Origin: a virus
Taxonomy: Duplodnaviria; Heunggongvirae; Uroviricota; Caudoviricetes
Length of the DNA stretch: 64,000 nt
Strand: one strand, 5' to 3'
IMG/VR virus record: IMGVR_UViG_3300045049_000270
This document shows, in pieces, positions 3,426 through 35,025 of the stretch. Each line of letters opens with the position of its first letter. Positions within the stretch are counted from its first letter, which is position 1. Position numbers and translations under genes: made by a program. The notes under the pieces were generated by a model, which ran no database searches, was not told where the DNA came from, and saw only the letters and a list, made by a program, of their open reading frames with translations.

Positions 3426-4190
3426 GTGAGCGTTTATCTTCGGCACATACCAATCAAAGACATCAGCGTGCCAGTACTGAATGTCAGTGCTGGTAATAAA
3501 AATGTCCTAAGTGTTCCAACGCAGCTTGGTTGTCCGGTCGGTTGTTCATTTTGCGTATCAACTACCAATAAATTTGTTCGTAATCTCACTGCTGATGAGA
3601 TTGTTGATTTGGTGGTCAAAAATGCACCAAATCACCCATTTGTTCTTTCATTTACTGGCGAGGGTGATGTTCTCTTTAACACCGAGAATGTGAGCAATGC
3701 TTTATCAACCCTCTACACTCTTAGCATACCGATCACATCAGTTCGTTATTCGATAAGTGGGGTTGCATCCCGCCGGATACGTTTTCTTGATACTACCACT
3801 TTCCCTGCTGAGTTACAGGTGTCGATGCACACTTTTAATCAGTCGATTCGTGATAAGATGATTCCAAAATCTGATCCGATTTATCGGATTTTGGAATCCG
3901 TATCCATGCATTACGCATCGTTCTCCAAAATTAGAATCAACTATGTATTGCGTGAAGGATTGAATGATACTCCTGGCGATATTACCCACCTTAAGCATTG
4001 GGGACATAATGATTGGGACTTCATTCTTAACCCATTCCTCACGCCTAACGGTGCTATCGTACATCCACGTGTAGATGACATAGCTATGGAAATGTTCTTT
4101 TCGGGTAGAAATGTCTATGTGTTTCGCAATGTAGGCGAAGACATCTGCGATAACGAGATTTACAATAACCTTACGTATCGCCAGCATTGA
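3426..4190 (+). CDS. radical SAM enzyme
   Basis: CxxxCxxC cluster motif in LGCPVGCSFCVST near the N-terminus; GTG start. Confidence 0.6.
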   Translation: MSVYLRHIPIKDISVPVLNVSAGNKNVLSVPTQLGCPVGCSFCVSTTNKFVRNLTADEIVDLVVKNAPNHPFVLSFTGEGDVLFNTENVSNALSTLYTLSIPITSVRYSISGVASRRIRFLDTTTFPAELQVSMHTFNQSIRDKMIPKSDPIYRILESVSMHYASFSKIRINYVLREGLNDTPGDITHLKHWGHNDWDFILNPFLTPNGAIVHPRVDDIAMEMFFSGRNVYVFRNVGEDICDNEIYNNLTYRQH

Positions 4191-4248: not shown

Positions 4249-4440
4249 ATGGTAACGACAAAAATTTATCTCTTTCCGAATGACCGTGCGCCTGAATTCA
4301 AAGACATTCATTTTGAATGCGAATCTCATCTTGAGCAAATCATGCGACAAATTGTTGCAAACACTAAGTTGATTCGTGTTAGTGATTTGCAATCAATCGC
4401 GGACACTCTTGCTACGCACGTCAAAGCAAATAGGTGTTGA
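4249..4440 (+). CDS. hypothetical protein
   Basis: AAGGAG RBS then ATG (MVTTKIY...). Confidence 0.4.
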   Translation: MVTTKIYLFPNDRAPEFKDIHFECESHLEQIMRQIVANTKLIRVSDLQSIADTLATHVKANRC

Positions 4441-4480
4441 CATCATGTTCAAGTGAAACTATCATTTGAATATGATGAAC
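4437..4480 (+). promoter_or_regulatory. family-P sigma70-like promoter cassette
   Basis: -35 TTGACA 4437-4442, N17 containing CATGTTCA, -10 TATCAT 4460-4465, TTGAA downstream. Confidence 0.55.
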
Positions 4481-4498
4481 ATCACGGAGCGTTCGAAA

Positions 4499-6706: not shown

Positions 6707-6925
6707 ATGAACAGCGCAGAACGTTACAAGGCACGTCAACAAGAACGTCGTGTTGAAACTGAACGTGCTCTCCTTGAATTTCAAGAATATGGTTTCGAGA
6801 TCTTCGAAACCAGTGAGCAAACGGCAAAGATTCACATGGAACAAGCTGCTGCTCTTCTTGCACGTTACCAATCTAAAGAACGCGTTCAGATGATGATCGT
6901 GGCCTTACAAAAAGCAATCTCATGA
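6707..6925 (+). CDS. hypothetical protein
   Basis: family-P promoter at 6647; GGAGAAGGAG RBS; ATG MNSAERYK; the track start lies inside the leader. Confidence 0.45.
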   Translation: MNSAERYKARQQERRVETERALLEFQEYGFEIFETSEQTAKIHMEQAAALLARYQSKERVQMMIVALQKAIS

Positions 6926-7212
6926 GTGTTATTGAAGAGCTCGACGAAGGTTCGCTAAATACATTCCTTTCAACATTTTATGTTGAAAGGGGAGTCATCA
7001 AAGCAAGCTTGCGTTCGTTTAAGAAACCAATATATCTTGTTGATCTGGATATAAGAAATTGGACGACAAGCAATCAAGATGAAGTAATATCTTGGTTGAA
7101 AGAAAATACAAAGGACGACTATGTTTCCGACATTGCCGTTGGCATGTTTTTCTTTCAAAGCCACGTCGATGCTATGCAGTTTTACCTAACGTGGGGAGAT
7201 CGCTTTGTCTAG
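6922..7212 (+). CDS. LTWG-family paralog (C-terminal FF..DA..FYLTWG motif)
   Basis: C-terminus FFFQSHVDAMQFYLTWG; ATGA overlap. Confidence 0.5.
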   Translation: MSVIEELDEGSLNTFLSTFYVERGVIKASLRSFKKPIYLVDLDIRNWTTSNQDEVISWLKENTKDDYVSDIAVGMFFFQSHVDAMQFYLTWGDRFV

Positions 7213-7531
7213 CATTGTCGAAATAACTGATGTCGAAGCGTTTTTGAACCAGTTCGACAAAGACATCAAGAAAGCAGTACGCCAGCGCATCAATACCCTT
7301 GACGAAGTCCCCTTTTATCTAGTGACTATCACGGGCAACGATGTGACAAAGAACGCTGCGGTTTATACCATGTTCGAGTGGCTGCTAGACAATGTTCAGC
7401 ATAAAGTGGTAAAGCAATACCCCCATGCACGCTTAGGATATACTGCGGTGAGCGCTATGGGTTATTACTTCTTCAAACAACACGCAGATGCACTTGCATT
7501 CTATTTCAGGTTTGGTAATGAATATGAGTAG
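7205..7531 (+). CDS. LTWG-family paralog
   Basis: C-terminus YYFFKQHADALAFYFRFG; TTG start overlapping the upstream stop. Confidence 0.45.
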   Translation: MSSIVEITDVEAFLNQFDKDIKKAVRQRINTLDEVPFYLVTITGNDVTKNAAVYTMFEWLLDNVQHKVVKQYPHARLGYTAVSAMGYYFFKQHADALAFYFRFGNEYE

Positions 7532-7917: not shown

Positions 7918-8010
7918 GTTGACTCAAGTATCAAATGAACACAGAATGTGATACATGGTAGACGCGCAGTGCAAAGAAAGCACTGCAAAATGGTAAAAAC
8001 TTTAAAGGAG
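7918..8010 (+). promoter_or_regulatory. family-P-like promoter (longer leader) upstream of WGR paralog 1
   Basis: TTGACT-N17-CAGAAT; TCAAATGAACA spacer; GATACATGGTAGAC leader; AAGGAG. Confidence 0.45.
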
Positions 8011-8017
8011 ATTACAA

Positions 8018-8515
8018 ATGGCAAAGGTTGAAATTCTGCGTGTTGGTCATGCACTGATCGCTGGCAAGCGTGGTGATAACGGTGGTGCTCCGTCGAAGGA
8101 CAGCGTGTTCGGTGTGGCAAAGGTACAAGGCAACCTCGTGACGTTCGGTGGCCGCCGTGGTGGCATGCTGCGTTTCAAGACATACAAGAAAGATGCACTC
8201 GAAAGCGTACTCGCATTTTACGCGAAGAAGCTGACGGGCAAGGACAAGGGTTTTGCGTATAAGGATCTCGATGCTGCGGCTCAGGTCGAAACGCTCGGTG
8301 CCGATTTTGAAGCAAACCTCGGCAAGATGTTCTACAAGGCGATGGGCAACGGCAAGCTGAACACGCGTTCGACGAAGCCGCAAGCTCCGAAGTACAAGGC
8401 ACCGAACCCGAAGAAGGTGTTCGCGTTCCCGACGCAAGCTTCGGTGGCGGCTGCCGCTGCGGCAGCCGAAAAGGCAGCCAAGAAGGCGGCAAAGGCCGAT
8501 AAGGCTGCTGCGTAA
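8018..8515 (+). CDS. WGR-domain-like small basic protein, paralog 1, with Ala/Lys-rich tail
   Basis: SKDSVFGVAKV...GRRGGMLRFKT...KKLTGK resembles the WGR core (FWEIE..G..V.V.WGRIG..G); H1-like tail AEKAAKKAAKADKAAA. Confidence 0.6.
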   Translation: MAKVEILRVGHALIAGKRGDNGGAPSKDSVFGVAKVQGNLVTFGGRRGGMLRFKTYKKDALESVLAFYAKKLTGKDKGFAYKDLDAAAQVETLGADFEANLGKMFYKAMGNGKLNTRSTKPQAPKYKAPNPKKVFAFPTQASVAAAAAAAEKAAKKAAKADKAAA

Positions 8516-8532
8516 GCAGTAACGCGTAATAC

Positions 8533-8565
8533 AATGGCTAGGTTTTACCCTAGCCATCGTCATTT
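8533..8565 (+). terminator. probable terminator hairpin (weak U-tract)
   Basis: ATGGCTAGG-TTTTAC-CCTAGCCAT. Confidence 0.45.
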
Positions 8566-8571
8566 CTGGTG

Positions 8572-8628
8572 TTGATGTTTTGTTCATTTGAACTTACCAT
8601 ATGATTATGGTTAACAACAGGAGCAAAC
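8572..8628 (+). promoter_or_regulatory. family-P promoter cassette
   Basis: TTGATG-N17-TACCAT; TTGTTCATTTGAAC spacer; ATGGTTAACAACAGGAG leader. Confidence 0.55.
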
Positions 8629-8630
8629 AA

Positions 8631-9101
8631 ATGCGTATCGCCGACATCAACGCAACCAAAGATCAGTTCGAAGCCGCACTGGGTATCGAGACTTTCGATA
8701 ATCTCTGCACGGTGCTCAGCTATTTGTCCGAGAACGACGAGCTCATTCGCCAGCTTTGCCAAGCATACAAGGAAGTCTTGCCTGACGCTCCTTTTTGTTC
8801 GATGTTCAACCATGTTTTCCTGGATTCCGAAAAGGCGTTCGGAAAGCTCTACAGCAAAGAAGAAATCGACGAACTTCTGCTGCGTATGCGCCAATACATC
8901 GTGCCACAATCGCAAGTGCATGGCTTCGATGATTTCGACATCAATTTCTCGGCAATCAAACGTCTCGCGGGAATTGGTGTGAACGTTGCTATCGACTTCA
9001 TCGGCGATGCGGAAACGGAGAAGGAGGCAGAAACGCGCACTTCTGTTCGTGTCACGTTTGTGGTTGTGCAGTACGGTGCATCATTCGAGGTCAAGTGCTA
9101 A
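8631..9101 (+). CDS. hypothetical protein
   Basis: family-P promoter at 8572; AGGAG RBS; ATG MRIADINATK. Confidence 0.5.
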   Translation: MRIADINATKDQFEAALGIETFDNLCTVLSYLSENDELIRQLCQAYKEVLPDAPFCSMFNHVFLDSEKAFGKLYSKEEIDELLLRMRQYIVPQSQVHGFDDFDINFSAIKRLAGIGVNVAIDFIGDAETEKEAETRTSVRVTFVVVQYGASFEVKC

Positions 9102-9108
9102 AAAGTGC

Positions 9109-9165
9109 TTGTAACCATGTTCAGGTGAATGTACCATCTGAACATGGTAAAACAAACACGGAGTC
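9109..9165 (+). promoter_or_regulatory. family-P promoter cassette
   Basis: TTGTAA-N17-TACCAT; CCATGTTCAGGTGAATG spacer; CTGAACATGGTAAAACAAACACGGAG. Confidence 0.6.
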
Positions 9166-9169
9166 TAGT

Positions 9170-9490
9170 ATGAACCGGCAAGAACTTGGCGCAATTGATG
9201 ATGAACTGAATGCAGTTAACCAACAGATCCGAGATCTGGAGCAACGGCGTGGTGAACTGCGTGAAGCTTACGCCCAAGGACACGCCGAGCTTTCCGGTTA
9301 TTCTGCTGGCTGCACAGTGCGATATAAGGCTTCCAATAAGGTCGTCAAAGAAGGGGTGGTTGCTTTTGTCAGGGCTCACCATACGCATGATTACGCGTAT
9401 GAAGTGGTGATCGATTGCACAGATGGTAACCGTATGTGGGTAAGGGGAAATTCGAAGAACCTCTGGTCTGTTAAGAAGGCAGGAGAATAA
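9170..9490 (+). CDS. hypothetical protein
   Basis: family-P promoter at 9109; ACGGAG RBS; ATG MNRQELGAID. Confidence 0.5.
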   Translation: MNRQELGAIDDELNAVNQQIRDLEQRRGELREAYAQGHAELSGYSAGCTVRYKASNKVVKEGVVAFVRAHHTHDYAYEVVIDCTDGNRMWVRGNSKNLWSVKKAGE

Positions 9491-9611
9491 GCGCAAAAGT
9501 GTTTGACGCCATAGTGTACTTGCAATACAATATGGCTTAGTAGTTGCAGTAAACCTTAAGGTGGCGTTGATGGGACTCGAAAACTATCTCATCACTTTTA
9601 AGGAGCAGTTC

Positions 9612-10181
9612 ATGAAGAAAATCATGTCGTTGTTTCAACGTAACTACGAAGGGGATCGTAAGGTTCGTGACGAAGTTACTCCGGGTGCTGAATGGGTTGT
9701 TCAGGGTGAAGGTTACGCTACTCGTAAATGGGATGGCGTGGCTGTGTTGGTAAAGGATGGTCAAGTCTTTAAGCGTTACGACGCTAAGACTGGGAGAACA
9801 CCTCCCATTGACTTCATTCCTGCCCAACCTAACCCTGATCCGAAAAGCGGGCACTGGCCTGGTTGGGTTCCCGCTGAAGGCCCGGAATCGAAGTACATTC
9901 GAGAAGCTGTCGAATGGGCGCAGAAGAACAAGTTTGCCGGTGGAATCCCTGATGGCACATATGAAGCGTGTGGTCCCAAAATTGGGACACGTCACGGTGC
10001 TAATCCTGAAGGTTTGACCGAACACATTCTTGTTCCTCACGGTAAGGATATCTTAGAAGATTGCCCGCGCACGTTTGATGGCATCAAAGAATGGTTGCGC
10101 GACAAGCCTATCGAAGGCATTGTTTGGCATCACGAAGATGGTCGCCTTGTGAAAATCAAGAAAGCTGACTTTCCGTACTAA
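9612..10181 (+). CDS. ligase-family nucleotidyltransferase (small ATP-dependent RNA/DNA ligase-like)
   Basis: motif I RKWDG (KxDG); motif IV PIEGIVWHH (EGhV); motif V RLVKIKK; AAGGAG RBS before MKKIMSLF. Confidence 0.6.
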   Translation: MKKIMSLFQRNYEGDRKVRDEVTPGAEWVVQGEGYATRKWDGVAVLVKDGQVFKRYDAKTGRTPPIDFIPAQPNPDPKSGHWPGWVPAEGPESKYIREAVEWAQKNKFAGGIPDGTYEACGPKIGTRHGANPEGLTEHILVPHGKDILEDCPRTFDGIKEWLRDKPIEGIVWHHEDGRLVKIKKADFPY

Positions 10182-11547: not shown

Positions 11548-12059
11548 TGTATACGATCGGTATGGTTACTGGATCGTTCGATCCAATCACACGAGGACAT
11601 GAATGGATGGTCGAACGTGCTTGTCGTACGTTCGATGAAGTCTACTTTGCGATTGCTTACAATCCAGCAAAGAAGGGAATGTTCAATTCGATCGAACGTG
11701 AGGAACTGGCACGGCGAGTGTTGGCTGACTCACTCACATCTGAGCTGTTCGAAAAGTTGAAGTTTGTAGTGATAGAAAATGAATTCACGGTCAGTGTGGC
11801 GAAGCGTCTAGGGGTGACCACAATCATGCGTGGCATTCGCAATGCTGTTGACTTTGGTTACGAGAAAGATATTCAAGGCTTCAACACCGATATCGAAAAT
11901 AGCATCGACCATGTCTTTGTAATTCCTCCCGAAGATATCACGCGTATCAGCTCATCAGCTGTGCGCGGGTTTGTCGGAATTAACAACTGGGAAGAAAAAG
12001 TGGCAAAATATATTCACCCATTTGTTCTGCAGGCGTTAGCAGATCGGGCGAATGTATGA
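11547..12059 (+). CDS. coaD: phosphopantetheine adenylyltransferase (PPAT/CoaD)
   Basis: GSFDPITRGH (T/HxGH motif), NPAKKGMFNSIEREEL, ISSSAVRG closely track E. coli CoaD; ATG overlaps the coaE stop (TAATG). Confidence 0.75.
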   Translation: MYTIGMVTGSFDPITRGHEWMVERACRTFDEVYFAIAYNPAKKGMFNSIEREELARRVLADSLTSELFEKLKFVVIENEFTVSVAKRLGVTTIMRGIRNAVDFGYEKDIQGFNTDIENSIDHVFVIPPEDITRISSSAVRGFVGINNWEEKVAKYIHPFVLQALADRANV

Positions 12060-12334
12060 TTGCTTGGACTCTTGAAGAATATCTCGATCCCACACTTGCC
12101 TTTCTGGGTCGTCAACAGAAGATTCATGACTTTGAACTAGAGCATGGTTTCAAACCTGAAGTCATTGTTCGTTTGACTTTCAGCGAAGGTTTTAGGTTCG
12201 ATAACCATGCTTTTCACCTTTTATATCGAGGATTGCGCGGCGATGTGATCTGTGAGCGATCTAATGATAGAAGACCATATCAAGTGTATTTCAAAAGCTT
12301 TATAGATTATCTTACGGTTCATTTGGCCGCATAG
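12056..12334 (+). CDS. hypothetical protein
   Basis: ATGA overlap with coaD. Confidence 0.45.
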   Translation: MIAWTLEEYLDPTLAFLGRQQKIHDFELEHGFKPEVIVRLTFSEGFRFDNHAFHLLYRGLRGDVICERSNDRRPYQVYFKSFIDYLTVHLAA

Positions 12335-12337
12335 CTC

Positions 12338-12390
12338 TTGATATCATGCTCATATGAACGTACCATATGAGCATGATTACTTCAGGAGAT
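12338..12390 (+). promoter_or_regulatory. family-P promoter cassette
   Basis: TTGATA-N17-TACCAT; CATGCTCATATGAACG / ATGAGCATG inverted repeat. Confidence 0.55.
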
Positions 12391-12391: not shown

Positions 12392-12634
12392 ATGATGACT
12401 ACTCGAGTCGAATTGCAACGCTGGTTGGATCAATTTCCTGAAGACGCCCAGATCGAAGTAATTACAACAGCCGAAAATGATCGGTACGGTTATCAACCGT
12501 ACACCTCGGTCTATGAAACCGAAATGAAGCTTGAAGTTCCCGCCGACTACATAAGTTATTTTCAGGGAGAAACTTTCGAGATTGAAAAGTTTGGTGATCG
12601 CTTTGTCATACGACTTGGTAAGAAAGGTGATTGA
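12392..12634 (+). CDS. hypothetical protein (80 aa)
   Basis: family-P promoter at 12338; AGGAG RBS. Confidence 0.45.
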   Translation: MMTTRVELQRWLDQFPEDAQIEVITTAENDRYGYQPYTSVYETEMKLEVPADYISYFQGETFEIEKFGDRFVIRLGKKGD

Positions 12635-12906
12635 TGCAGTTACTCTCATTCGCAGCCTTCCAAGCCAGATATGGCGAAGATCGAGTTCGAAACTGGATGT
12701 CTCGAACAATGGGAAATGTTCGTTTCCTTCCTGGCTCAGTATTACTGCCTGATAAACACGATCACTTCTATGAAGTGGATCCTGATTGGCACACTGAAAA
12801 TGTGAAGGGGAAGATCGGTTTCAACCCAGCAGTAGATTTCATACCACCAGCAATTTATTTTCAGCATGAAACTGATGCGGTTGCCTGGTTGCTGGCTTGG
12901 GGTTGA
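12631..12906 (+). CDS. LTWG-family paralog
   Basis: C-terminus IYFQHETDAVAWLLAWG; ATGA overlap. Confidence 0.45.
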   Translation: MMQLLSFAAFQARYGEDRVRNWMSRTMGNVRFLPGSVLLPDKHDHFYEVDPDWHTENVKGKIGFNPAVDFIPPAIYFQHETDAVAWLLAWG

Positions 12907-12962
12907 CTTACGGTTCATATGAACGTATCATGTGAGTTCTTGTACTACGAAAGTCGGAGAAT
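12903..12962 (+). promoter_or_regulatory. family-P promoter cassette
   Basis: TTGACT-N17-TATCAT; GGTTCATATGAACG spacer. Confidence 0.55.
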
Positions 12963-12965
12963 CAC

Positions 12966-13163
12966 ATGAGCACGCATGGCATTATGGTCCAGAATCAGAA
13001 GGGCGAAACTCTGTATTACACAGGTAAGGCAGGTGAAAAATGGCTCAGCCCAAATTCGGAGGAAGCATTCATCGGATATAGCGAACAGGGAGCATTGTAC
13101 AGGGCTGGTAAGTTAAACAAACAACATGAGGGGTTATGGTTTAGCCCATATCCAGCAAAATGA
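12966..13163 (+). CDS. hypothetical protein (65 aa)
   Basis: family-P promoter at 12903; CGGAG RBS. Confidence 0.4.
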   Translation: MSTHGIMVQNQKGETLYYTGKAGEKWLSPNSEEAFIGYSEQGALYRAGKLNKQHEGLWFSPYPAK

Positions 13164-13483
13164 ATGCACAAATATTCAAACCACACGTCTTCAACGAGCT
13201 GAGTAAGCTCGATAAGCTATACGGTGACTTACACGAGGCCGGTAGCTGGTTCAAGAATGGTATCGAATCAGCTGAATTTCACATCGCGTGTGCAATGATC
13301 ATCATGTTCGACTCCAAACGTCGTTGGACATGGATCGAGCTATGCGAATGGCTTGAATCCGAGTGCGAGGGAGACCAACTTCCAATAATGCGTACGAAGA
13401 ACGGTAGCGGCGTTATGGCCGTGTTTTTCGAACGCGAAATTGACGCAATCAAGTTTTACATGACACACGGCGACAAAGTGTGA
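13160..13483 (+). CDS. LTWG-family paralog
   Basis: C-terminus VFFEREIDAIKFYMTHG; ATGA overlap. Confidence 0.5.
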   Translation: MNAQIFKPHVFNELSKLDKLYGDLHEAGSWFKNGIESAEFHIACAMIIMFDSKRRWTWIELCEWLESECEGDQLPIMRTKNGSGVMAVFFEREIDAIKFYMTHGDKV

Positions 13484-13493
13484 TGGTGTCAGC

Positions 13494-13766
13494 ATGGCTA
13501 AATTACAAACAACAAAAGAATGGTTGGATATTGAAGGGCCCGAACAGGGCAAGCGTGCCAATCTATTAATAGAACACTATCGCTCTTCAAAGAAGAACCA
13601 TCCATATGTTGTTACATTTGATTTGCCAAACAGCTTTACACATATAATCGATACCGTCAAAAATGAATATGACGGTTGTTTCACGCTCGATGGCAAGCTA
13701 AATGTGATGATGTGTTTCTTCACTGACTACAAAAATGCTTTGGCATTCTACCTTACGTGGTGCTGA
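13494..13766 (+). CDS. LTWG-family paralog
   Basis: C-terminus MCFFTDYKNALAFYLTWC. Confidence 0.5.
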   Translation: MAKLQTTKEWLDIEGPEQGKRANLLIEHYRSSKKNHPYVVTFDLPNSFTHIIDTVKNEYDGCFTLDGKLNVMMCFFTDYKNALAFYLTWC

Positions 13767-13767
13767 T

Positions 13768-14058
13768 ATGCCACTTCGAACAGTTCAAGATTGGATCAAG
13801 AATGGCAGTGAGGAGCATATAAGTGGCTCACATGAACTGTATCGTCAACACATAGTTGATGATCGCGAAGCCATTGAATTCCATATGTATCTATATGCTG
13901 TAGACATTGCCATTACCAATAGTAATATAATGGCATCTCGCCGTTGGGCAAAGCTCAATATTGAGTATGATTATTCAATAATACTGCTCAAAACAACCGT
14001 ACTTGGTTTATTCTCGAACTACCAAGACGCGCTGAACTATTTCCTGACTTGGGGTTAA
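13768..14058 (+). CDS. LTWG-family paralog
   Basis: C-terminus GLFSNYQDALNYFLTWG; ATG 2 nt after the upstream stop. Confidence 0.5.
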   Translation: MPLRTVQDWIKNGSEEHISGSHELYRQHIVDDREAIEFHMYLYAVDIAITNSNIMASRRWAKLNIEYDYSIILLKTTVLGLFSNYQDALNYFLTWG

Positions 14059-14061
14059 GGG

Positions 14062-14361
14062 ATGGCTATTATTCGTGAAATGGAAAGATGGTTCGCCATG
14101 AAAGATGATGAATTGCACAGTGCTGTCGAATATGTGATTCGACAGTCATTAAAGGCGGACTTCGAAGAAGTTAACAAACTACCGTCAGGGTATATAGTCA
14201 TGTCTGACGGTCTCGTTAAGTCTGAGCGAGATCAGGCTGTAAGGCTTTGGCACAAGGAACAAAAAATCAAATTGAACTGGCGACAGTTCGGTATGGTCGT
14301 TGTCACTATGTATGAAAAATACAACGATGCTTTGGCGTTCTATCTAACATTCGGCCAATAA
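14062..14361 (+). CDS. LTWG-family paralog
   Basis: C-terminus VTMYEKYNDALAFYLTFG. Confidence 0.5.
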   Translation: MAIIREMERWFAMKDDELHSAVEYVIRQSLKADFEEVNKLPSGYIVMSDGLVKSERDQAVRLWHKEQKIKLNWRQFGMVVVTMYEKYNDALAFYLTFGQ

Positions 14362-14362
14362 A

Positions 14363-14623
14363 ATGATATACAGTTGCAAAAATACAACAGACAAAATAGC
14401 AAAACGTGCAGCCTATATGGCCACAAAAATTGGTAATTTGTCGTTAGATGAATGCAATTTTATGGTCTTGATAGGCAATCAGACTATTGAAGAGCTCAGA
14501 GCCAATCTAGTTGAGCAGTGTGTAGGTAAGTTTTGGACTCATCACATTCCTACTGACAATATGTTAGTTGTGGTTTTTGAAGAGGTGCGAGATGCTCTCC
14601 TGTTCGACTTTACGTACAATTAA
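14363..14623 (+). CDS. LTWG-family paralog (divergent)
   Basis: C-terminus VVFEEVRDALLFDFTYN. Confidence 0.45.
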   Translation: MIYSCKNTTDKIAKRAAYMATKIGNLSLDECNFMVLIGNQTIEELRANLVEQCVGKFWTHHIPTDNMLVVVFEEVRDALLFDFTYN

Positions 14624-14681
14624 CCATACCTTCACCAGTTCTGATTCCTAGCTACTCACGTTCAAAAAGTTAGAAAAACTG

Positions 14682-14770
14682 TTGACGCCACATTTAAGTG
14701 ATCCTATCATTTGACATGTGGTGAGCAGTAACTGACAGACAACGCAACGTAGTAACTTTTCAAGGAGAAA
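14682..14770 (+). promoter_or_regulatory. family-P-like promoter (long leader) upstream of WGR paralog 2
   Basis: TTGACG-N17-TATCAT; TTGACATGTGGTGAGCAG leader; AAGGAG. Confidence 0.5.
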
Positions 14771-14773: not shown

Positions 14774-15169
14774 ATGGCAAAGGTCGAAATCATCAAGCTG
14801 GGTCACGCACTGATCGAAGGCGAACGCGGCGAAAAGGGTGGCAAGCCGTCGAAGGACAGCGTCTGGGGTATCGCATACGTCGGCAACGCACTCGTCAAGT
14901 TCTACGGCCGTCGTGGTGGCAAGCTGCGCTTCAAGACGGAAAAGAAGGCCGCACTCGACGAAGCGCTGGCACTGTTCGAAGAAAAGCTGGCCGGCAAGGA
15001 CGTGAAGGGCATCAAGTACGTCGACGTGTCGAGCGCGAAGGGGATCAAGGAAACGTGTCCGTCGATCGTCGAAGATGTCAGCAAGGGCTACTACGCGGCT
15101 GTGCGTGAAGGCAAGGTAAACACGCGTTCGACGAAGGGCGCCCGCAAGGCTGCTGAAGCTGAAGCATAA
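14774..15169 (+). CDS. WGR-domain-like small basic protein, paralog 2
   Basis: MAKVEIIKLGHALIEGERGEKGGKPSKDSVWGIAYVGNALVKFYGRRGGKLRFKT...EEKLAGKDVKGIKY. Confidence 0.6.
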   Translation: MAKVEIIKLGHALIEGERGEKGGKPSKDSVWGIAYVGNALVKFYGRRGGKLRFKTEKKAALDEALALFEEKLAGKDVKGIKYVDVSSAKGIKETCPSIVEDVSKGYYAAVREGKVNTRSTKGARKAAEAEA

Positions 15170-19821: not shown

Positions 19822-20373
19822 TTGAGTAACTTGGTCATTCTTAAAGTTGGTCATGCCTTCATCAAGGGTAAGTTTGCTAACGACAAGCCGAAAAAGGATT
19901 CTCTCTGGGGGCTGATGCGCACTGATGAGGCAGTCATCAAGTTCTTCGGGCGGCGCGGCGGATCGATTAGGTTCAAACAAGAACCGATCAGCGAGCTCGA
20001 AGCAGCGCTCAAGCTGTACCAGCAGAAGCTAGATGGCACTGATGCAAAGAAGCTGAAGCACGATGATCTCGATGCCGACAAGCAGGCTGAGCTGCTTGGG
20101 GCCAACTTTTCGCAAGAACTTTGCGAAAAGTATGAAGCAGCACTTGCTGAAGGCAAGATCGACTACCGCATTGCGAAGGTCGATGACGAAGCTGATGGCG
20201 AAGTTGCGGAGCCGAAGGCTGAGGAACCGAAAGCAGCTGGCAAAGCTAAGGGAAAACCCAAGGCCGAATCAAAGGCTCCCGAAACGCCACCGGCTCAGAC
20301 TGCGCCAACCAACACGACTCCTTTTAGCTGGCCGTACCCAACGACCACTATTCCCTCCAGCACACAAGAGTAA
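19822..20373 (+). CDS. WGR-domain-like protein, paralog 3, with Glu/Lys/Pro-rich tail
   Basis: KKDSLWGLMRTDEAVIKFFGRRGGSIRFKQ...YQQKLDG; TTG start after AGGAGA RBS; family-P promoter at 19760. Confidence 0.55.
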   Translation: MSNLVILKVGHAFIKGKFANDKPKKDSLWGLMRTDEAVIKFFGRRGGSIRFKQEPISELEAALKLYQQKLDGTDAKKLKHDDLDADKQAELLGANFSQELCEKYEAALAEGKIDYRIAKVDDEADGEVAEPKAEEPKAAGKAKGKPKAESKAPETPPAQTAPTNTTPFSWPYPTTTIPSSTQE

Positions 20374-22194: not shown

Positions 22195-22252
22195 TTGCAA
22201 TCATGTTCAGATGAGCATATCATTTGAACATGGTAAACAAACAAGGAGAATA
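22195..22252 (+). promoter_or_regulatory. family-P promoter cassette (near-consensus copy)
   Basis: TTGCAA-N17-TATCAT; spacer TCATGTTCAGATGAGCA; leader identical to the 21939 copy. Confidence 0.65.
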
Positions 22253-24919: not shown

Positions 24920-25312
24920 ATGAATAATTTAGCTATTCGACCCCCACACGGTTTTCCTATGAACACCAAGACCGATGGGAAAGGTCTTTGGTCCAAGGTT
25001 GCACGTGATGTCAACATCGTTCGACTTGAAGTAGCTTATGTGGATCACGAGTCCAAGTTTGCGTCGGTGAACGCTTACTTTGATCCTAACACCTGGGATA
25101 TTGACGACGGCATCATCTACACTGATGACACGTGGTTAGCAACATTTCGGCGGGCACTCATTGCTCAATGTTATGTTCCGGCTGACGTTGCTGCGGCGAT
25201 TAGCTATTCCGAAATGGGTATGCAAGGCCCAGACTATGTCAACCTCGATTGTGGTGCGGCCTTTTACCATTATCTGTTTGGTGGCAGCATGCTTTCTCAT
25301 GAAGACGCTTAG
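24920..25312 (+). CDS. hypothetical protein
   Basis: ORF of 130 aa. Confidence 0.45.
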   Translation: MNNLAIRPPHGFPMNTKTDGKGLWSKVARDVNIVRLEVAYVDHESKFASVNAYFDPNTWDIDDGIIYTDDTWLATFRRALIAQCYVPADVAAAISYSEMGMQGPDYVNLDCGAAFYHYLFGGSMLSHEDA

Positions 25313-25616
25313 TGAAACATTAAACGAATTTTATGGCTGCAAACCTACACAGTGGAGCAGCCGTGACTACGAAGAGGAAAATTTCTGCAAAGACATCAAG
25401 AACCTTCCCTTCAAGCCAAAAGCATTCGTCGTGTTTTCCGAGACACATCGCAAGCGCCGCTCCGACTACGTTCAGAGCATACATGAATGGTGTGGCAATA
25501 ATGTGCGTGGTGCGTTTGCTGCGTTTTTGACATCGGAAGTCAAGTCTCCAATTTATGAGCTGTGGTGCTTTCAAGATGAAGCAGACGCAGCCATATTCAA
25601 ACTAACATGGTGCTGA
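25299..25616 (+). CDS. LTWG-family paralog
   Basis: C-terminus LWCFQDEADAAIFKLTWC; ATG overlaps the upstream gene's 3' end by 14 nt in another frame. Confidence 0.5.
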   Translation: MKTLSETLNEFYGCKPTQWSSRDYEEENFCKDIKNLPFKPKAFVVFSETHRKRRSDYVQSIHEWCGNNVRGAFAAFLTSEVKSPIYELWCFQDEADAAIFKLTWC

Positions 25617-26604: not shown

Positions 26605-26683
26605 TTGACGTGAGCATCAAATGAACGTATTATTTGATACATGGTAAGCAGTGAAGACAACGCAACAAACTTTACAGGAGATC
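26605..26683 (+). promoter_or_regulatory. family-P promoter cassette (long leader) upstream of WGR paralog 4
   Basis: TTGACG-N17-TATTAT; CATCAAATGAACG; TTGATACATGGTAAGCAG ... CAGGAG. Confidence 0.55.
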
Positions 26684-26686
26684 GAA

Positions 26687-27046
26687 ATGGCAAATGTCGA
26701 AATCATCAAGTTTGGTCACTTCTACAACGAAGGTGCTCGTGGTGAAGCAGGTGGCGCGGCAAGCAATGATAAGATCTGGGGTGTGGCAAAGATCGACGGC
26801 AAGTTGGTCAACTTCTGGGGCCGCCGCAACGGCAAGCTGAAGTTCAAGACGCGTTATCTCAGCGAGATGGGTAAGGTCATGGAAAAGTGGGCCGAAAAGA
26901 TTGGTGGCCGCACTGATGGTGGCGATGTCTATACTCCGATTCTCTCGGCAACGATGCAAATGACGCTGTGCCCGCGTCTCGTACAAGATGTCACGAAGCA
27001 CTTCTATATCGATCTTGCAAAGGGCAAGGTTAATACGAATCACTAA
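26687..27046 (+). CDS. WGR-domain-like protein, paralog 4
   Basis: MANVEIIKFGHFYNEG...SNDKIWGVAKIDGKLVNFWGRRNGKLKFKT; family-P promoter at 26605. Confidence 0.55.
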   Translation: MANVEIIKFGHFYNEGARGEAGGAASNDKIWGVAKIDGKLVNFWGRRNGKLKFKTRYLSEMGKVMEKWAEKIGGRTDGGDVYTPILSATMQMTLCPRLVQDVTKHFYIDLAKGKVNTNH

Positions 27047-27112: not shown

Positions 27113-27376
27113 ATGCAATTGATCATCATGACCGTTCACGACTTCATTACTGAGCAAAATCAGGAAGTTCGGCGTCGCGTCTACAACAAACTCAAATTCA
27201 CACCAGCTTGTGTGCTGCGTACCAAAGGAGTGGCGGCTTCTGCCCTGGTGCGCGAAAACCTAGAGTGGTTCATTAAAAATACGGCTGGAGCTTGTTTTCA
27301 ACCAATATTTTGTAATGCCATTTATTTTGAATCTATGGCAGATGCAATTGCTTGTAAATTGGCGCTAGAAAAATGA
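27113..27376 (+). CDS. LTWG-family paralog (divergent)
   Basis: C-terminus AIYFESMADAIACKLALEK. Confidence 0.4.
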   Translation: MQLIIMTVHDFITEQNQEVRRRVYNKLKFTPACVLRTKGVAASALVRENLEWFIKNTAGACFQPIFCNAIYFESMADAIACKLALEK

Positions 27377-27723
27377 AAACACTTCACGACGTTATTAGTG
27401 AGCATTATAATGCTAGGGATGATGTCCAAAAGAAAGAAGCCGATCGAGACCATATTATCAAGTTGTTTGAAACAAAAGTGAATATGTTTGATTATAATCC
27501 AACAGCATTTTTCATTTTTAATTTCAGGCATCTTGAAAAAATCATGTCCGAACGTAAAAAATTCGATGGTTCAATTATGAATTGGCTTCATCAAAACATG
27601 AGTGGTCGGTTTTCAGTATTAAGAATCGAGCAAGCAACAGAACGGATTGGCTCTGGTATTTCAAGGTTGCTGTGTTTCCAGAATGAACATGATGCTGTTT
27701 TATTCAAACTAACTTGGTGCTGA
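27373..27723 (+). CDS. LTWG-family paralog
   Basis: C-terminus LLCFQNEHDAVLFKLTWC; ATGA overlap. Confidence 0.5.
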   Translation: MKTLHDVISEHYNARDDVQKKEADRDHIIKLFETKVNMFDYNPTAFFIFNFRHLEKIMSERKKFDGSIMNWLHQNMSGRFSVLRIEQATERIGSGISRLLCFQNEHDAVLFKLTWC

Positions 27724-27724
27724 T

Positions 27725-28066
27725 ATGAAATATGATGAATTGATGAAAATGGCAATTGATCGGGCGATCAATGAAACTAAAACTAGAGTTGAGCATTCAA
27801 CTGCTCACTCATTTGAGGGACCAAATGTTGAATATTTTGTTATTCAAAGCTATGAAGCGTATGATCGGATGACAGACGAATTGAAAACTGACCAGGCAAA
27901 TGGCTTACGCTATTTTTCGAAACACGATATCGTTCGCTGGTCCGATGATTACGGTGCTATCGTTGAAGTGGCAAATCCTGATATCCTATTCGGTTTAAAG
28001 TGTCGCCTTTGGGGATTTGAACGAGAAACCGACGCTATTGGCTTCAGACTCACCTGGTGTGCTTGA
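27725..28066 (+). CDS. LTWG-family paralog
   Basis: C-terminus LWGFERETDAIGFRLTWC. Confidence 0.5.
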   Translation: MKYDELMKMAIDRAINETKTRVEHSTAHSFEGPNVEYFVIQSYEAYDRMTDELKTDQANGLRYFSKHDIVRWSDDYGAIVEVANPDILFGLKCRLWGFERETDAIGFRLTWCA

Positions 28067-28118
28067 TTTTGCCTTCATATGAAGCTATCATTTGGTTAGA
28101 TAGATGATAGCAGGAGAT
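28064..28118 (+). promoter_or_regulatory. family-P promoter cassette
   Basis: TTGATT-N16-TATCAT; CTTCATATGAAGC spacer. Confidence 0.5.
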
Positions 28119-28122
28119 TAAC

Positions 28123-28440
28123 ATGAAGCGTAGTCAAGTGCAAAAGCTTGAAGCAGTGCTCGAAAACGCGAAAATCCCGAACGCCTTTTGGCCAGGAATC
28201 ATTCGAGGCGTTGACGATCTCGAGTTTGTTCCTGATGGCTACGTGGTGCTTACCAACATTCATCGAGACAACTTCCGCTCGAAAGGCTACAAAACAAAAG
28301 ACTTGGATGAATGGCTTGATAATAATACTAGCGGGCAGTTTGGTGCTATTGTCACTTCAGCACCTGGCATAAATGCAATCTGGTGTTTCGAGGACCTTGG
28401 TGATGCAGCAATGTTCAAGCTCATGTACGGTGTTGAATAA
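28123..28440 (+). CDS. LTWG-family paralog
   Basis: C-terminus IWCFEDLGDAAMFKLMYG; family-P promoter at 28064. Confidence 0.5.
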   Translation: MKRSQVQKLEAVLENAKIPNAFWPGIIRGVDDLEFVPDGYVVLTNIHRDNFRSKGYKTKDLDEWLDNNTSGQFGAIVTSAPGINAIWCFEDLGDAAMFKLMYGVE

Positions 28441-28715
28441 TGAAATACAGTACATGGCTTGCTGAAATGTCGGATGTTGATCGGATGGTCTGGCATTTTC
28501 ATTTTAAAGATTTCAAATGGCCCATCAACTTCGTAGTACAGTGCCGTCCGCCCAAAACGGCTGGTGAAGTATTCGAGCGATATACTTGGTTGGATGAAAA
28601 TGTAGATTCTCCCTATACGTGGGAAGAACAGCTAGTGCCACCGGGCTTGTATTACTTTTTCGAAAATGAGATGGAAGCATTGCAGTTCAAACTAACGTAT
28701 GGATATGAACACTGA
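28440..28715 (+). CDS. LTWG-family paralog
   Basis: C-terminus YYFFENEMEALQFKLTYG; TAATG overlap. Confidence 0.5.
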   Translation: MKYSTWLAEMSDVDRMVWHFHFKDFKWPINFVVQCRPPKTAGEVFERYTWLDENVDSPYTWEEQLVPPGLYYFFENEMEALQFKLTYGYEH

Positions 28716-28987
28716 TGAATGCCATTGAATGGGTTGAATTACTGCAATCGTTGGACAGGAAATCAACCGATAGTAGTGAAGTGATGCTCAAACGATTGTT
28801 TCCGTTCAAGTTCAAACTCATGCGCAATACAACTGAGCAAAAGCAGCTCATAGCTGAAGCTACAGATTGGTTGCTGAACAATGCCACCAGCGATGAATAT
28901 GTGTGGTTGGCATCAACCGTTCACTTCAAAGATGATGTTGTAGCAATGCAGTTTAGGCTAACATTCACCGACATAGTCAGCAGTTGA
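28715..28987 (+). CDS. LTWG-family paralog
   Basis: C-terminus STVHFKDDVVAMQFRLTF; ATGA-type overlap. Confidence 0.45.
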   Translation: MNAIEWVELLQSLDRKSTDSSEVMLKRLFPFKFKLMRNTTEQKQLIAEATDWLLNNATSDEYVWLASTVHFKDDVVAMQFRLTFTDIVSS

Positions 28988-31586: not shown

Positions 31587-32417
31587 ATGAAACGTACTAT
31601 TGGCTTTATTGTTGCACTCGCTATTGGTGCAATGTTGATGACGAGTGGTTGCACTCGCATTGAATCAGGCAATGTCGGCATTGTCAAACATTGGGGCGGC
31701 AAAATCGATCCTGAAGTGTTGGAACCTGGTTTCCATTTCATGATTTTCGATTCGCTGCTCGCAGAAGTTGATGCAACTCCTACACGAGTGGCAGTGAATA
31801 ATCTCACACCGAAAGATGCTGACGGCGTACCAGTTGACGATCTGGATATCGTTGTAACATATAAACTCAATGCACCATATGTATCAAAGTTCTATACTGG
31901 AACACATGAACTGGATACGTACAAAGATGGTAGTGGGCGTGAATACACTACTATTGGGCTTGAAGCTATCAAGCAATTGGCTCCTGGTGTTATGCAAACC
32001 GCAACGGAAACCGATGACCCTGTTGCTATTGCGAAGAATACGCAATTGTATGATGCGAAAGCTTCTGCTGAATTCAAACGTGTGCTTGATGCACGATATC
32101 CAAATGCGTTCGATTCAGTATCAGTGCTCACATTACATTTCAAATTGCCCGATTCTATTCAACAACAAGTGAATGCAGTAGCGGCATTTAATGCTGAAGC
32201 AGAACGCAACAAGGCTGAATTGGCGTTGATTGCACAACGCAAGGAACTTGCGAGCAAGAAAGCAACCGTAGACGCTGAGGCGCTTCGTGCCGCTGCTGAT
32301 GCTGCCCACCTCACACCCGAAGAGGTGATTGCGTGGCGCAACGCCAATGCCGCTCAGACCCAAGCTGAAAATATCGGTGGTGTTGCAAAAGTGATCGATG
32401 TAAGTACCAAGAAATAA
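31587..32417 (+). CDS. SPFH/band-7 domain lipoprotein
   Basis: lipobox LMTSGC; SPFH-like SGNVGIVKHWGG...LEPGFHF...DLDIVVTYKLN; Ala-rich coiled-coil C-terminus. Confidence 0.6.
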   Translation: MKRTIGFIVALAIGAMLMTSGCTRIESGNVGIVKHWGGKIDPEVLEPGFHFMIFDSLLAEVDATPTRVAVNNLTPKDADGVPVDDLDIVVTYKLNAPYVSKFYTGTHELDTYKDGSGREYTTIGLEAIKQLAPGVMQTATETDDPVAIAKNTQLYDAKASAEFKRVLDARYPNAFDSVSVLTLHFKLPDSIQQQVNAVAAFNAEAERNKAELALIAQRKELASKKATVDAEALRAAADAAHLTPEEVIAWRNANAAQTQAENIGGVAKVIDVSTKK

Positions 32418-32432
32418 CGTAGTAGTCCTGTT

Positions 32433-32470
32433 AGTGGTAGGGTGAGGATCCTCACCCTACCACTCATTTG
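32433..32470 (+). terminator. rho-independent terminator
   Basis: GTGGTAGGGTGAGGATCCTCACCCTACCAC then TCATTTG. Confidence 0.6.
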
Positions 32471-32474
32471 GTCG

Positions 32475-32535
32475 TTGACAATTCATTCATATGAATGCAG
32501 AATACGATACATGGTAGACACAACAGGAGAATAGT
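32475..32535 (+). promoter_or_regulatory. family-P promoter cassette
   Basis: TTGACA-N17-CAGAAT; TTCATTCATATGAATG palindrome; GATACATGGTAGACACAACAGGAG. Confidence 0.55.
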
Positions 32536-32537
32536 TC

Positions 32538-32741
32538 ATGCAATTCACAGACAATGCTGTTGTAAAAATTGCTCGAGACACGAAGAAAGACTATGGTTTG
32601 ATGCTTGGTCGGACGGGTACTATCAAGATGAAATGCATGCGTAAGAACGGTGTTGATTATTACCAAGTTCGCATTGGTAGAGTGCCTTTTATCGATGTGA
32701 TCGAAGTTGCAGCATGTGACTTGGATCCGGCAACACCATAA
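32538..32741 (+). CDS. hypothetical protein (67 aa)
   Basis: family-P promoter at 32475; AGGAGAATAG RBS. Confidence 0.4.
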   Translation: MQFTDNAVVKIARDTKKDYGLMLGRTGTIKMKCMRKNGVDYYQVRIGRVPFIDVIEVAACDLDPATP

Positions 32742-32746
32742 AACAG

Positions 32747-32800
32747 TTGACACCATGTTCAGGTGAATGTATCATTTGAACATGGTAAAGAACAGGAGAT
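32747..32800 (+). promoter_or_regulatory. family-P promoter cassette (consensus copy)
   Basis: TTGACA-N17-TATCAT; CCATGTTCAGGTGAATG; TTGAACATGGTAAAGAACAGGAG. Confidence 0.65.
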
Positions 32801-32804
32801 AAAA

Positions 32805-33902
32805 ATGGTTATTTGGAAGGATATTGCTGTTCCCATCATCGAAAAACAGGTTCACATTCGTGCGCTTACTGGCGCCAAGTCTCGCCGTCGTTTCTCGTTT
32901 ATCAAGACTTTTGGCGATGTTCCTGTTGCCAACATTAACGAAATCACTGGCAAGCTTGAGCCTGTCGTCAACAATCGTGGTCGTGCTTATGCGGCACGCC
33001 TTCTGGAGCTCGACGCACAATTCCATTTTGTTGAGCAGCGTCCTCCCGCGCTGCGCGATGACGGCCCGGCGATCGCGCCTCACGGCCCTACATACCTCCC
33101 CGTCGTCGCGATTGAACGCGTCACTCACATCGGCGAGATGAACCCCGCCGCGCGCGACAGTACCGGGCAAAGCCTCGAAGGACATGCGCTGTCGGTCTCC
33201 ACGACACCCCACGCATGGGAGGAGATCGCCACCATCGGCGGTCGGCCGTGGTTTGAGCTGACGAACCACGATGCGAACTTCGTCGACGTCCTGGCACTGC
33301 TGGCCGACGAAACCCGGACAGCCGCATTACGCTCGTGGGCGCAGTCCGAAGGTCTGCTCCGACCGGAGCAACAATACCGCGCCTGGTATCTCGACACCGA
33401 TAGCGACGAATGGCACTACTTCGTCGCCGACTCGCGCGAAGCCGCATGGAGCGAGATCGATACCGGCGAATTCGATTCGCCCGACGATGCGCCTGGGCCC
33501 GACGGGAAACCGTGCATCGAACCGATCTGCCAATGGGTTGGCACGCCCGCCCTCGAATCGGCCGTCGGTCGAGTCGGTTTGAATCAGACCGAGAGCACGG
33601 ATATGGCCCTGATGATTTTCGTCGAGCGTCATTGTCCCGACATCGATGGCCTGTGGTGGACGGAGCAATACGATCCGCTGGCGCTCTCGGCGCCGCGCGG
33701 CGGAATACTTCCTGATCGGCTTGCTCGCTGGACGGCTACTCCGGTTTCCCGGCACCGGGTCGATGACGAAATCGCTTTGCCAGAAGCGAGCGAGATGCCA
33801 GTCCATCAGCCCGCGTTGAAGCCCGCTCATGAAGCGCAGCCAGTCGACGCAACGGCAAAGGATGCGCCGCATTCCCCACGTCGGCCCCCGCGGGCGCGAT
33901 GA
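32805..33902 (+). CDS. hypothetical protein encoded largely within a high-GC island
   Basis: family-P promoter at 32747; ORF becomes ~65% GC from ~32.9 kb; varied residue composition suggests real coding. Confidence 0.45.
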   Translation: MVIWKDIAVPIIEKQVHIRALTGAKSRRRFSFIKTFGDVPVANINEITGKLEPVVNNRGRAYAARLLELDAQFHFVEQRPPALRDDGPAIAPHGPTYLPVVAIERVTHIGEMNPAARDSTGQSLEGHALSVSTTPHAWEEIATIGGRPWFELTNHDANFVDVLALLADETRTAALRSWAQSEGLLRPEQQYRAWYLDTDSDEWHYFVADSREAAWSEIDTGEFDSPDDAPGPDGKPCIEPICQWVGTPALESAVGRVGLNQTESTDMALMIFVERHCPDIDGLWWTEQYDPLALSAPRGGILPDRLARWTATPVSRHRVDDEIALPEASEMPVHQPALKPAHEAQPVDATAKDAPHSPRRPPRAR

Positions 33903-34965: not shown

Positions 34966-35025
34966 TTGACGCCACATTCAGGTGAACTTATCATCTGACG
35001 TACGGTAAACAACGTGAGGAGGGAA
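34966..35025 (+). promoter_or_regulatory. family-P promoter cassette
   Basis: TTGACG-N17-TATCAT; CCACATTCAGGTGAACT; CTGACGTACGGTAAACAACGTGAGGAGG. Confidence 0.55.

Follow-up and report, generated by a model that had tools for sequence, protein, structure and literature searches.

Introduction

In the hyperplastic regions of T4-type phages, promoter/stem-loop cassettes (PeSLs) are found in front of ORFans, and recombination between PeSLs can mediate duplication and deletion (Arbiol et al. 2010, PMC2839356). Here we describe a comparable arrangement in a 64,000-nucleotide stretch of DNA (hereafter the window) from a virus of the Caudoviricetes (IMG/VR record IMGVR_UViG_3300045049_000270), in which small proteins of one family are encoded in tandem arrays. 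One of them, array A, lies among nine small open reading frames (ORFs) on the plus strand at 12.3-15.2 kb and includes a run of seven ORFs at 12631-14623 to which a sequence-only reading, made without database searches, had drawn attention. As in the T4-type case, small ORFans occupy a plastic region with a repeated cassette before each short unit, and they undergo insertions, deletions and replacements between related phages. The cassettes also resemble each other, combining an A-rich stretch, strong sigma70-like -35 and -10 boxes, a palindrome over the -10 box, a Shine-Dalgarno (SD) sequence and a start codon. However, PeSL ORFans in T4-type phages are unrelated single genes, whereas those of the window largely belong to one paralogous family in multi-gene operons, and the palindrome (CATGTTCA...TGAACATG) is unlike the G/C-tract stems of RB49 and phi1.

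A ~35-copy expansion of a zinc ribbon is described for Bacillus phage G (Iyer et al. 2021, PMC7824862). There as here, one small domain of guessed function is present at tens of copies in a very large phage, but the folds differ, the present family being predicted to form an alpha/beta sandwich whose window copies are devoid of metal-binding residues, and, unlike the phage G case, it is also arrayed on many unrelated viral contigs. In archaeal viruses, early anti-defence genes (ADGs) are clustered and have a regulatory sequence in common (Bhoobalan-Chitty et al. 2024, PMC11065993). These clusters, like anti-CRISPR/Aca (anti-CRISPR-associated) loci, share with our arrays small, fast-evolving and unannotatable accessory proteins behind a conserved strong promoter with a palindrome; known anti-defence clusters, however, usually mix unrelated proteins, whereas here a single family has expanded, and we identified neither a known anti-defence protein nor a regulator of the Aca type nor a neighbour related to defence. 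The multigene families (MGF) of African swine fever virus form tandem paralog arrays in variable regions, with copy numbers varying between related viruses and a presumed role in host interaction; the resemblance is an analogy only, as proteins, hosts and genome biology are unrelated. Seen against these systems, the finding is an ORFan paralog expansion in the plastic region of a large phage, a type of feature that is already known, while the domain itself is uncatalogued.

Results and Discussion

A family of small proteins

All seven ORFs of the run were located on the plus strand at the coordinates of the sequence-only reading. Independent gene calls by JGI on a strain contig (L001, 218,697 bp, 99.15% identical) match five of them and differ for the other two solely by the start codon. 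Six of the seven had been claimed to share a C-terminal motif, which is borne out by two kinds of profile hidden Markov model (HMM). In a leave-one-out series on the last 40 amino acids every held-out member ranked, among 516 ORFs from all six frames, directly after the remaining seeds, 11 of 13 at E<0.01. A profile made exclusively from 42 outside proteins, none of them at least 40% identical over at least 30 aa to any window ORF, recovers 15 window ORFs with E values between 1e-14 and 7e-5, all six array A members among them (3e-9 to 4e-5), the best reversed-sequence decoy reaching 0.045. The seven-ORF run is thus confirmed as real, with six of its genes coming from one protein family; the ORF at 12966, which interrupts the run and had already been set apart, matches neither the family HMM nor Pfam.

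Of the further copies proposed by the sequence-only reading, those at 6922-7531, 25299-25616 and 27113-28987 were recovered (E<=7e-5), whereas the one at 63431 was not (E=0.5), and an additional copy at 35031-35402 had been missed. Altogether the window holds 15 firm copies and a probable one within about 28.5 kb, all on the plus strand, which makes the family roughly one gene in eight of the 64 kb region. As the 8.5 kb before the window and the 6.5 kb after it contain no further copies, the expansion is concentrated at 6.9-35.4 kb.

Predicted fold

Conservation in the full-length alignment extends upstream of the C-terminal motif to a hydrophobic strand (Y/F-V-V) that is followed by (E)W(L/C)..N..G..(Y/F). 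Two members were modelled with AlphaFold2, the product of 13494-13766 on a paralog alignment of 16 sequences (predicted local distance difference test, pLDDT, 83.3; predicted template modelling score, pTM, 0.74) and that of 27373-27723 on a 63-sequence alignment (pLDDT 88.3, pTM 0.81). Both models present the same order of elements, two N-terminal helices and then strand-helix-strand-strand-helix. The nearly invariant residues of 27373-27723 (W71, F102, D107, A108, F111 and L113) map to helix 58-75, the end of strand 98-102 and the terminal helix 105-115, from which we infer that they are fold determinants acting in core packing and helix capping, and would for this reason stand out while the rest drifted. 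In the models the whole protein appears as one domain of about 85-125 aa, made up of variable N-terminal helices and a beta-alpha-beta-beta-alpha core.

This picture departs from the one first proposed, in which a constant C-terminal interaction motif was attached to essentially unrelated N-termini. At the level of BLAST the N-termini of array A are indeed dissimilar (best E=0.08), but those of array B at 27113-28987 are not (E about 4e-7), and profile alignment and predicted structure likewise speak against unrelatedness. The conserved residues sit on the core of one fold predicted to span the whole protein rather than forming a separate motif.

In the window copies the pattern reads W..N..G..(Y/F) ... 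F....DA..F.L(T)W(G/C) and is located on the central and terminal helices and the last strand; the consensus of the relatives is W(C/L)..N(C).G.(Y/F) ... F(F)E.E.DA..FKL(T/R)W(G/S/C). A metal site formed by the cysteines of distant relatives (WC..NC) was considered and rejected, as the window copies have aliphatic residues at these positions. With ferredoxin-like alpha/beta sandwiches such as ACT, BMC shell and RRM domains the core shares the beta-alpha-beta-beta-alpha order and the packing of helices on one face of a small antiparallel sheet; unlike them, the family has no canonical last strand, carries two added N-terminal helices and shows no sequence relationship. Structural matches are generic, at 3-15% identity. 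The family is neither an ACT domain, judged by Pfam ACT membership and by a beta-alpha-beta-beta-alpha-beta fold with a ligand site at the dimer interface, nor a BMC shell domain, judged by sequence membership and the hexamer-forming BMC fold, and no specific structural or sequence similarity to the T4 Arn-type anti-restriction protein (PDB 3wx4) was seen.

Constraint and turnover

A protein identical (100%) to the 13494-13766 product is encoded on a 523,572 bp JGI contig, and a related phage (L134, contigs of 523,836-523,837 bp) shows about 64-88% protein identity in conserved neighbours; the source phage is very probably a megaphage of ~523 kb. Between strain variants, 15 family genes differ by 21 synonymous and 15 non-synonymous changes, corresponding to a ratio of non-synonymous to synonymous polymorphism (pN/pS) of 0.18, compared with 0.15 for 30 non-family neighbours. 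Site counts predict that about 29 of these 36 changes would be non-synonymous under neutrality. Given this deficit, the family genes are real and constrained by purifying selection, and their reading frames are intact in all strain variants.

Over the longer distance to L134 the median ortholog identity is 44% for the family vs 70% for flanking genes (Mann-Whitney p=0.002). The copies at 13494 and 14363 have no L134 ortholog, a different family member taking the place of the former, while the positional counterpart of 13768-14058 is just 23% identical; conversely, L134 has family members without a window counterpart at four positions. The comparison of the two sequences points to birth and death, with family copies gained, lost and replaced.

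Catalogue status and distribution

The family is uncatalogued in Pfam, NCBIfam and PDB. Ten window copies gave no Pfam match above noise and 98 relatives no common Pfam family, none of the NCBIfam families was matched by 63 members, and a PDB sequence profile search returned noise only (Rab9, E 0.18). PHROGs contained no match below E=0.07 for the window copies, and 98 relatives scatter over 11 of its families, all without known function and each matched by a single relative. In BFVD the top matches are uncharacterised proteins from uncultured Caudovirales (24-25% identity), probably family members themselves. Literature searches for the motif strings gave chance matches only.

The array had no megablast match among 50,697 phage records, and tblastn against the same records with one relative or a 1,347-aa concatenate of 27 domain variants found none either, a search that is uninformative for a divergent domain of ~50 aa in so large a search space. 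A word-indexed search of 5.8 billion proteins retrieved solely the phage's own copies and strain variants, and a metagenome scan with a conserved neighbour gene returned no relative. The HMM search that had been advised at the outset was run exhaustively with HMMER and revealed a widespread family (243 metagenomic cluster representatives at E<=1e-3), nearly all of these being 55-200 aa long with the domain at the extreme C-terminus. Ten relatives have two domain copies per chain (P0017, P0050, P0085, P0107, P0108, P0111, P0123, P0146 and others), showing that tandem genes have repeatedly been fused or read through.

IMG/VR and prokaryotic genomes were scanned with a hand-made degenerate DNA version of the strict motif. 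At least 120 IMG/VR loci contain it; among the matches listed, 116 were confirmed by HMM and 54 have 2-11 copies, closely packed on the same strand. The proteins of these loci have a median length of 88 aa, with a median of 1 residue left between domain and stop. The contigs measure about 25 kb to 561 kb, and arrays recur in large as well as in ordinary-sized viral contigs. By comparison, 596 Gb of bacterial and archaeal genomes yielded only 12 strict-motif matches, about six of them genuine, where the information content of the pattern lets about four be expected by chance. With many viral loci and few prokaryotic ones, the family is therefore essentially virus-restricted, with arraying as a general habit. 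Large phage genomes are dominated by small unannotated genes, and for this group a signature, a predicted fold, a distribution and a genomic habit are now defined, which is enough for its registration as a new domain family.

Array A and the other copies

The features of array A and the remaining copies are compiled in Table 1. For the first ORF of the run, a start at ATG 12634 is probably to be preferred over TTG 12631, because it forms a TGATG junction with the upstream stop and because the orthologs have 90 aa. The gaps between successive array A genes are, in order, -1 (with ATG 12634; -4 with TTG 12631), +59, -4, +10, +1, +3 and +1 nt, those of array B -4, +1, +56, -1 and -1 nt. Adjacent genes had been described as overlapping; the junctions are tight, but mostly non-overlapping. 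Promoter copies at 12338, 12903 and 14673-14682 divide array A into two operons, one formed by the 12392 and 12634 genes, the other by the 12966 ORF and five family genes. Each is headed by a non-family ORF with a strong SD sequence, that at 12392 being, like the 12966 ORF, negative with both Pfam and the family HMM. Within the operons, the next cistrons begin at -4 to +10 nt, a spacing compatible with the translational coupling that the sequence-only reading had envisaged.

Table 1. Array A with its promoter cassettes, and other family copies of the window. E values refer to the profile from outside proteins unless marked; percentages are identities to L134 orthologs.
Feature	Position	Strand	Remarks
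Two overlapping family copies	6922-7212 and 7205-7531	+	E=3e-13 and 5.6e-7; 'FY' subtype, as array A
Cassette 1	12338-12390	+	TTGATA-17-TACCAT; palindrome at -10; SD; before operon 1; repeat families D1/D3/D6
Lead ORF of operon 1, non-family	12392-12634	+	80 aa; strong SD (CAGGAGATT); 65%
Family copy A1	12634-12906	+	90 aa; E=1.1e-6; ortholog of 90 aa, 62%
Cassette 2	12903-12958	+	TTGACT-17-TATCAT; overlaps A1 stop; before six-gene operon; repeat family D6
Lead ORF of operon 2, non-family	12966-13163	+	65 aa; strong SD; 70%
Family copy A2	13160-13483	+	107 aa; E=3.4e-9; 68%; ATGA overlap with upstream ORF
Family copy A3	13494-13766	+	90 aa; E=3.3e-5; AlphaFold2 model (pLDDT 83.3, pTM 0.74)
Family copy A4	13768-14058	+	96 aa; E=7e-7; starts 1 nt past upstream stop
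Family copy A5	14062-14361	+	99 aa; E=2.3e-5; starts 3 nt past upstream stop; 44%
Family copy A6	14363-14623	+	86 aa; E=4.1e-5; absent from L134
Cassette 3	14673-14737	+	TTGACG-17-TATCAT; end of array operon, before next gene; repeat family D8
Single family copy	25299-25616	+	105 aa; 'FKLTWC' subtype; E=1.1e-14; JGI gene call
Array B, six family copies	27113-27376, 27373-27723, 27725-28066, 28123-28440, 28440-28715, 28715-28987	+	E=1.6e-14 to 6.6e-5
Probable 16th copy	35031-35402	+	123 aa; E=2e-4 and 4.7e-4 (two broader profiles), 0.0066 (outside proteins only); best decoy 0.045
Claimed copy, unsupported	63431-63769	+	E=0.51; 0.17 with the second of the broader profiles

Within array A the C-terminus of A6 (..DALLFDFTYN) is the most degenerate. 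The 'FY' subtype (FYLTWG) is limited to the 6.9 kb pair and array A, while the 'FK/FR' subtype occurs in the single copy at 25299 and in array B, a split by position that indicates local tandem duplication. The L134 orthologs of the 6.9 kb pair are 44% and 41% identical, and the second gene of the pair (7205-7531) carries 9 synonymous vs 3 non-synonymous single-nucleotide polymorphisms between strains. The L134 ortholog of the 25299 singleton (54% identical) sits within array B of that phage. The probable copy at 35031-35402 contains the family elements YYAFPVRFWF, LTWLRENAKGYY and VYLSSEEDAAKIKLSF and continues after the domain with a strongly basic C-terminal tail of 25 residues (DVRDVKVKRPRIAARRKKVKTYKTKK), whereas in other copies only a few residues follow the motif. 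The gene is monocistronic: a separate promoter cassette (34966-35021) precedes it, and past the stop there is a GC-rich hairpin (about 35409-35426). The ORF at 63431-63769 scores well solely in profiles that contain it and is at best a very degenerate relative.

Two observations concern the edges of the arrays and genes. Just upstream of array A, the ORF at 12056-12334 ends in a degenerate sequence (VYFKSFIDYLTVHLAA) that resembles the family ending and is correctly spaced but gives no significant match, and its counterpart in L134 (11803-12102) is a clear family member; it is either a decayed family copy or a replacement. Moreover, the junction 'ACNTGGTGCTGATATG' (..TWC codons, stop, one base, next ATG) is found at 13735-13770 and at 27692-27727 with 78% DNA identity over 36 nt, so the duplication unit may have spanned the gene boundary, or the conserved 3' ends may have served as recombination microhomology.

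Promoter cassettes

More than 40 copies of a stereotyped intergenic element of 55-70 nt are present in the window. The consensus of 30 aligned copies, TTGAnA-CCATGTTCA-nATGAACn-TATCAT-TTGAACATGG-TAAACAA..GGAG, comprises a sigma70-like promoter (17-nt spacing) whose -10 box is bracketed by a 9-bp palindrome, followed by an SD sequence, and contains a TGAACA/TGTTCA half-site three times. Strong sigma70-like -35 and -10 boxes at a spacing of about 17 nt with an SD sequence and start codon, directly upstream of ORFans, are among the characters of a PeSL, and these are present. Promoter scan matches at 12338, 12903 and 14682 correspond to the cassettes of array A; further cassettes were found at 26605, at 28063-28118 inside array B and at 34966, and examples elsewhere in the window lie at 4437-4492, 9109-9164, 22195-22250, 32747-32802, 45624-45679, 61091-61146 and 61729-61784.

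The two arms of the palindrome pair in 78.5% of cells, compared with 22-49% when slid, and its covariation score was reached by 72 of 500 shuffles, so that compensatory change is not above shuffled alignments. Stem-loop and protein-binding site are equally possible, and the palindrome could be the operator of a global regulator. By analogy with T4-type phages, the cassettes suggest early transcription by the host RNA polymerase, and the arrays are probably switched on early in infection.

Function of the family

Taken as a whole, a lineage-specific expansion of an uncatalogued small-protein family whose members act as early, soluble, protein-binding modulators explains the data best, and we place it somewhat above even. 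Its descriptive part, a real family with one fold that has expanded by birth and death behind promoter cassettes, we regard as highly probable; its functional part, early protein-binding modulators with paralogs directed at different targets, is tentative and clearly below even. The arrays grew by local tandem duplication in a plastic accessory region and evolve by birth and death, with single copies held by purifying selection, and a stereotyped sigma70-like cassette stands before each operon. In this scenario the host RNA polymerase would transcribe early, the tightly packed downstream cistrons would be translated by coupling, and the mostly acidic products would serve as soluble modulators, each paralog being aimed at a different target, in the host (such as a defence factor or a housekeeping factor) or possibly in the phage. 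Packing, small acidic proteins, turnover and promoters are compatible with early host-interaction proteins, and host takeover or anti-defence is a plausible leading candidate role. Inspected by eye, without a predictor, the sequences lack hydrophobic stretches of the length that a membrane span or signal peptide requires. Being short, soluble and individually conserved, the copies are practical candidates for toxicity, pull-down and defence-inhibition screens.

Several points weigh against this explanation. The family had been called rapidly diversifying, which is true of the orthologs when compared with their flanks, yet positive selection was not detected at short distance, pN/pS being close to that of the neighbours. 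Nor do orthologs bear out a variable surface next to a constant C-terminus, as the N-terminal part and the last 45 aa diverge equally (47% vs 51%, p=0.32), so that the idea of a diversified binding surface has to draw on divergence between paralogs. Early expression is read from the consensus promoter scan and the T4-type analogy, the burial of the conserved residues from their position in secondary structure rather than from coordinates, and the AlphaFold2 models were built on shallow alignments. Every relative is annotated as 'hypothetical protein', no annotation bearing on function, and no conserved partner gene or fused domain offers a functional handle: the ten longer relatives carry no recognisable fused domain, and no recurrent partner family emerged among 106 larger neighbours pooled from 54 multi-copy loci, which disfavours a fixed two-component module. 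How varied the surroundings are is illustrated by L136/L137, where a family member is one of ten small ORFs that separate the two topoisomerase II subunit genes of a phage also encoding IF3, ArgRS and ClpX, and by L135, where a family member is found among NAMPT, NMNAT-Nudix, Cpn10, RtcB and Macro genes.

A bolder proposal, which we consider rather doubtful, takes the domain for a dedicated viral binder scaffold, a compact acidic alpha/beta fold whose core is fixed by about eight residues, variation being left to the helices and to a loop of variable length that joins the last two strands. Via promoter-cassette recombination, large phages would amplify and reshuffle this domain into repertoires of early proteins, each of them neutralising another defence or factor of the host. 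If true, the family would be among the most widespread anti-defence or host-takeover families still without annotation. Less likely than this scaffold are small nucleic-acid-binding regulators, for instance RNA-binding translational repressors or chaperones, with an RRM/KH-like sandwich whose paralogs read different transcripts. The basic tail of 35031-35402 and the location of the genes within densely regulated operons would suit such a role, but the members are mostly acidic (12 of 16 window copies have a pI <6.3, and the relatives have a median pI of 5.2 with 8% above pI 8), the conserved residues are hydrophobic and helix-capping without an RNP-like aromatic/basic surface, and the generic structural matches lend it no weight. 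The proteins might also be ligand sponges or ACT-like small-molecule sensors, oligomers via the exposed sheet edge that sequester metabolites or immune signalling nucleotides; the ten two-copy chains are compatible with a dimeric functional unit and the proteins are small, abundant and probably early. This we judge quite improbable, since no ACT or other ligand-binding family is recognised by sequence, the conserved positions are mostly hydrophobic with no conserved polar pocket-like motif, and 16 divergent copies for small ligands are hard to explain.

That the genes are near-neutral passengers, ORFan cassettes of little or no function multiplied by recombination between repeated promoter elements, would fit the high turnover between related megaphages, the presence of repeated cassettes that could mediate duplication and deletion, as for PeSLs, and the lack of a function recognisable with Pfam or NCBIfam. 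The strain variants argue otherwise, with intact frames throughout, a pN/pS like that of the neighbours and about half the non-synonymous changes expected under neutrality, as do the fold-defining residues kept across hundreds of very distant viral relatives; we rate passengers as improbable, between the nucleic-acid binders and the sponges. Immunity gene clusters typically consist of small, divergent paralogs of one fold arranged in tandem, and the array form could hence reflect immunity or antitoxin-type proteins, each against a cognate toxin, like the orphan immunity arrays beside polymorphic toxin loci. Nothing toxin-like is recognisable in the two array operons, however, the neighbours in the 54 multi-copy loci are heterogeneous auxiliary, replication and structural genes with no recurrent partner, and the family is almost absent from bacterial genomes, which makes this the least likely of the alternatives. 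The combination of paralog expansion and repeated cassettes extends the PeSL model of modular shuffling from T4-type coliphages to a megaphage of ~523 kb.

Other features of the window

The window is almost entirely plus-strand coding, has about 43% GC and is mostly unannotatable, with scattered auxiliary enzymes (CoaE-like kinase, nucleotidyltransferase, RNA ligase, radical SAM, arginase and HD domain). Unusual phage auxiliary genes encode an arginase-family enzyme (59443-60342, E=2e-56), an NMT1-like periplasmic binding protein with a signal-like N-terminus (57303-58220) and a radical SAM protein (3426-4190). The GC content rises to 0.50 at 8001-10000 and to 0.55 at 32001-34000 vs a background of about 0.43, the second island covering a 379-aa ORF (32763-33902) that matches nothing in Pfam. 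Just downstream of the window (L143, 4782-6617) lies the gene of a YadA-anchor (trimeric autotransporter) protein.

Besides the family described above, a second paralog family was noticed at 8018-8515, 14774-15169, 19822-20373 and 26651-27046 (ATG at 26687), with 29-54% identity by BLAST. Its members start with MAKVEIIKxGHA and contain W-G ... F-x-G-R-R-G-G-x-L-R-F-K; every copy comes with a promoter cassette of its own, and all but one of the four adjoin an array of the first family. Pfam WGR stays below threshold (E=0.011) and no PDB match was obtained. What looks from its sequence like a third tandem paralog array occupies 52728-56189, directly downstream of an HD_4-domain gene (52060-52731), where five ORFs in a row, each of about 210-240 aa, have M(A)SKAExSLLxxIL(T/S) in common at the N-terminus and IxKAFxxLLPL(I/L)K at the C-terminus, a relationship beyond BLAST at 1e-5. 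Paralog pairs were also seen at 38037-38309 / 38318-38602 (36% identical) and at 40043-40654 / 41733-42329 (32% identical), the latter flanking a gene at 40686-41654 with weak PP-loop ATPase similarity, which is among the few convincing minus-strand genes of the window.

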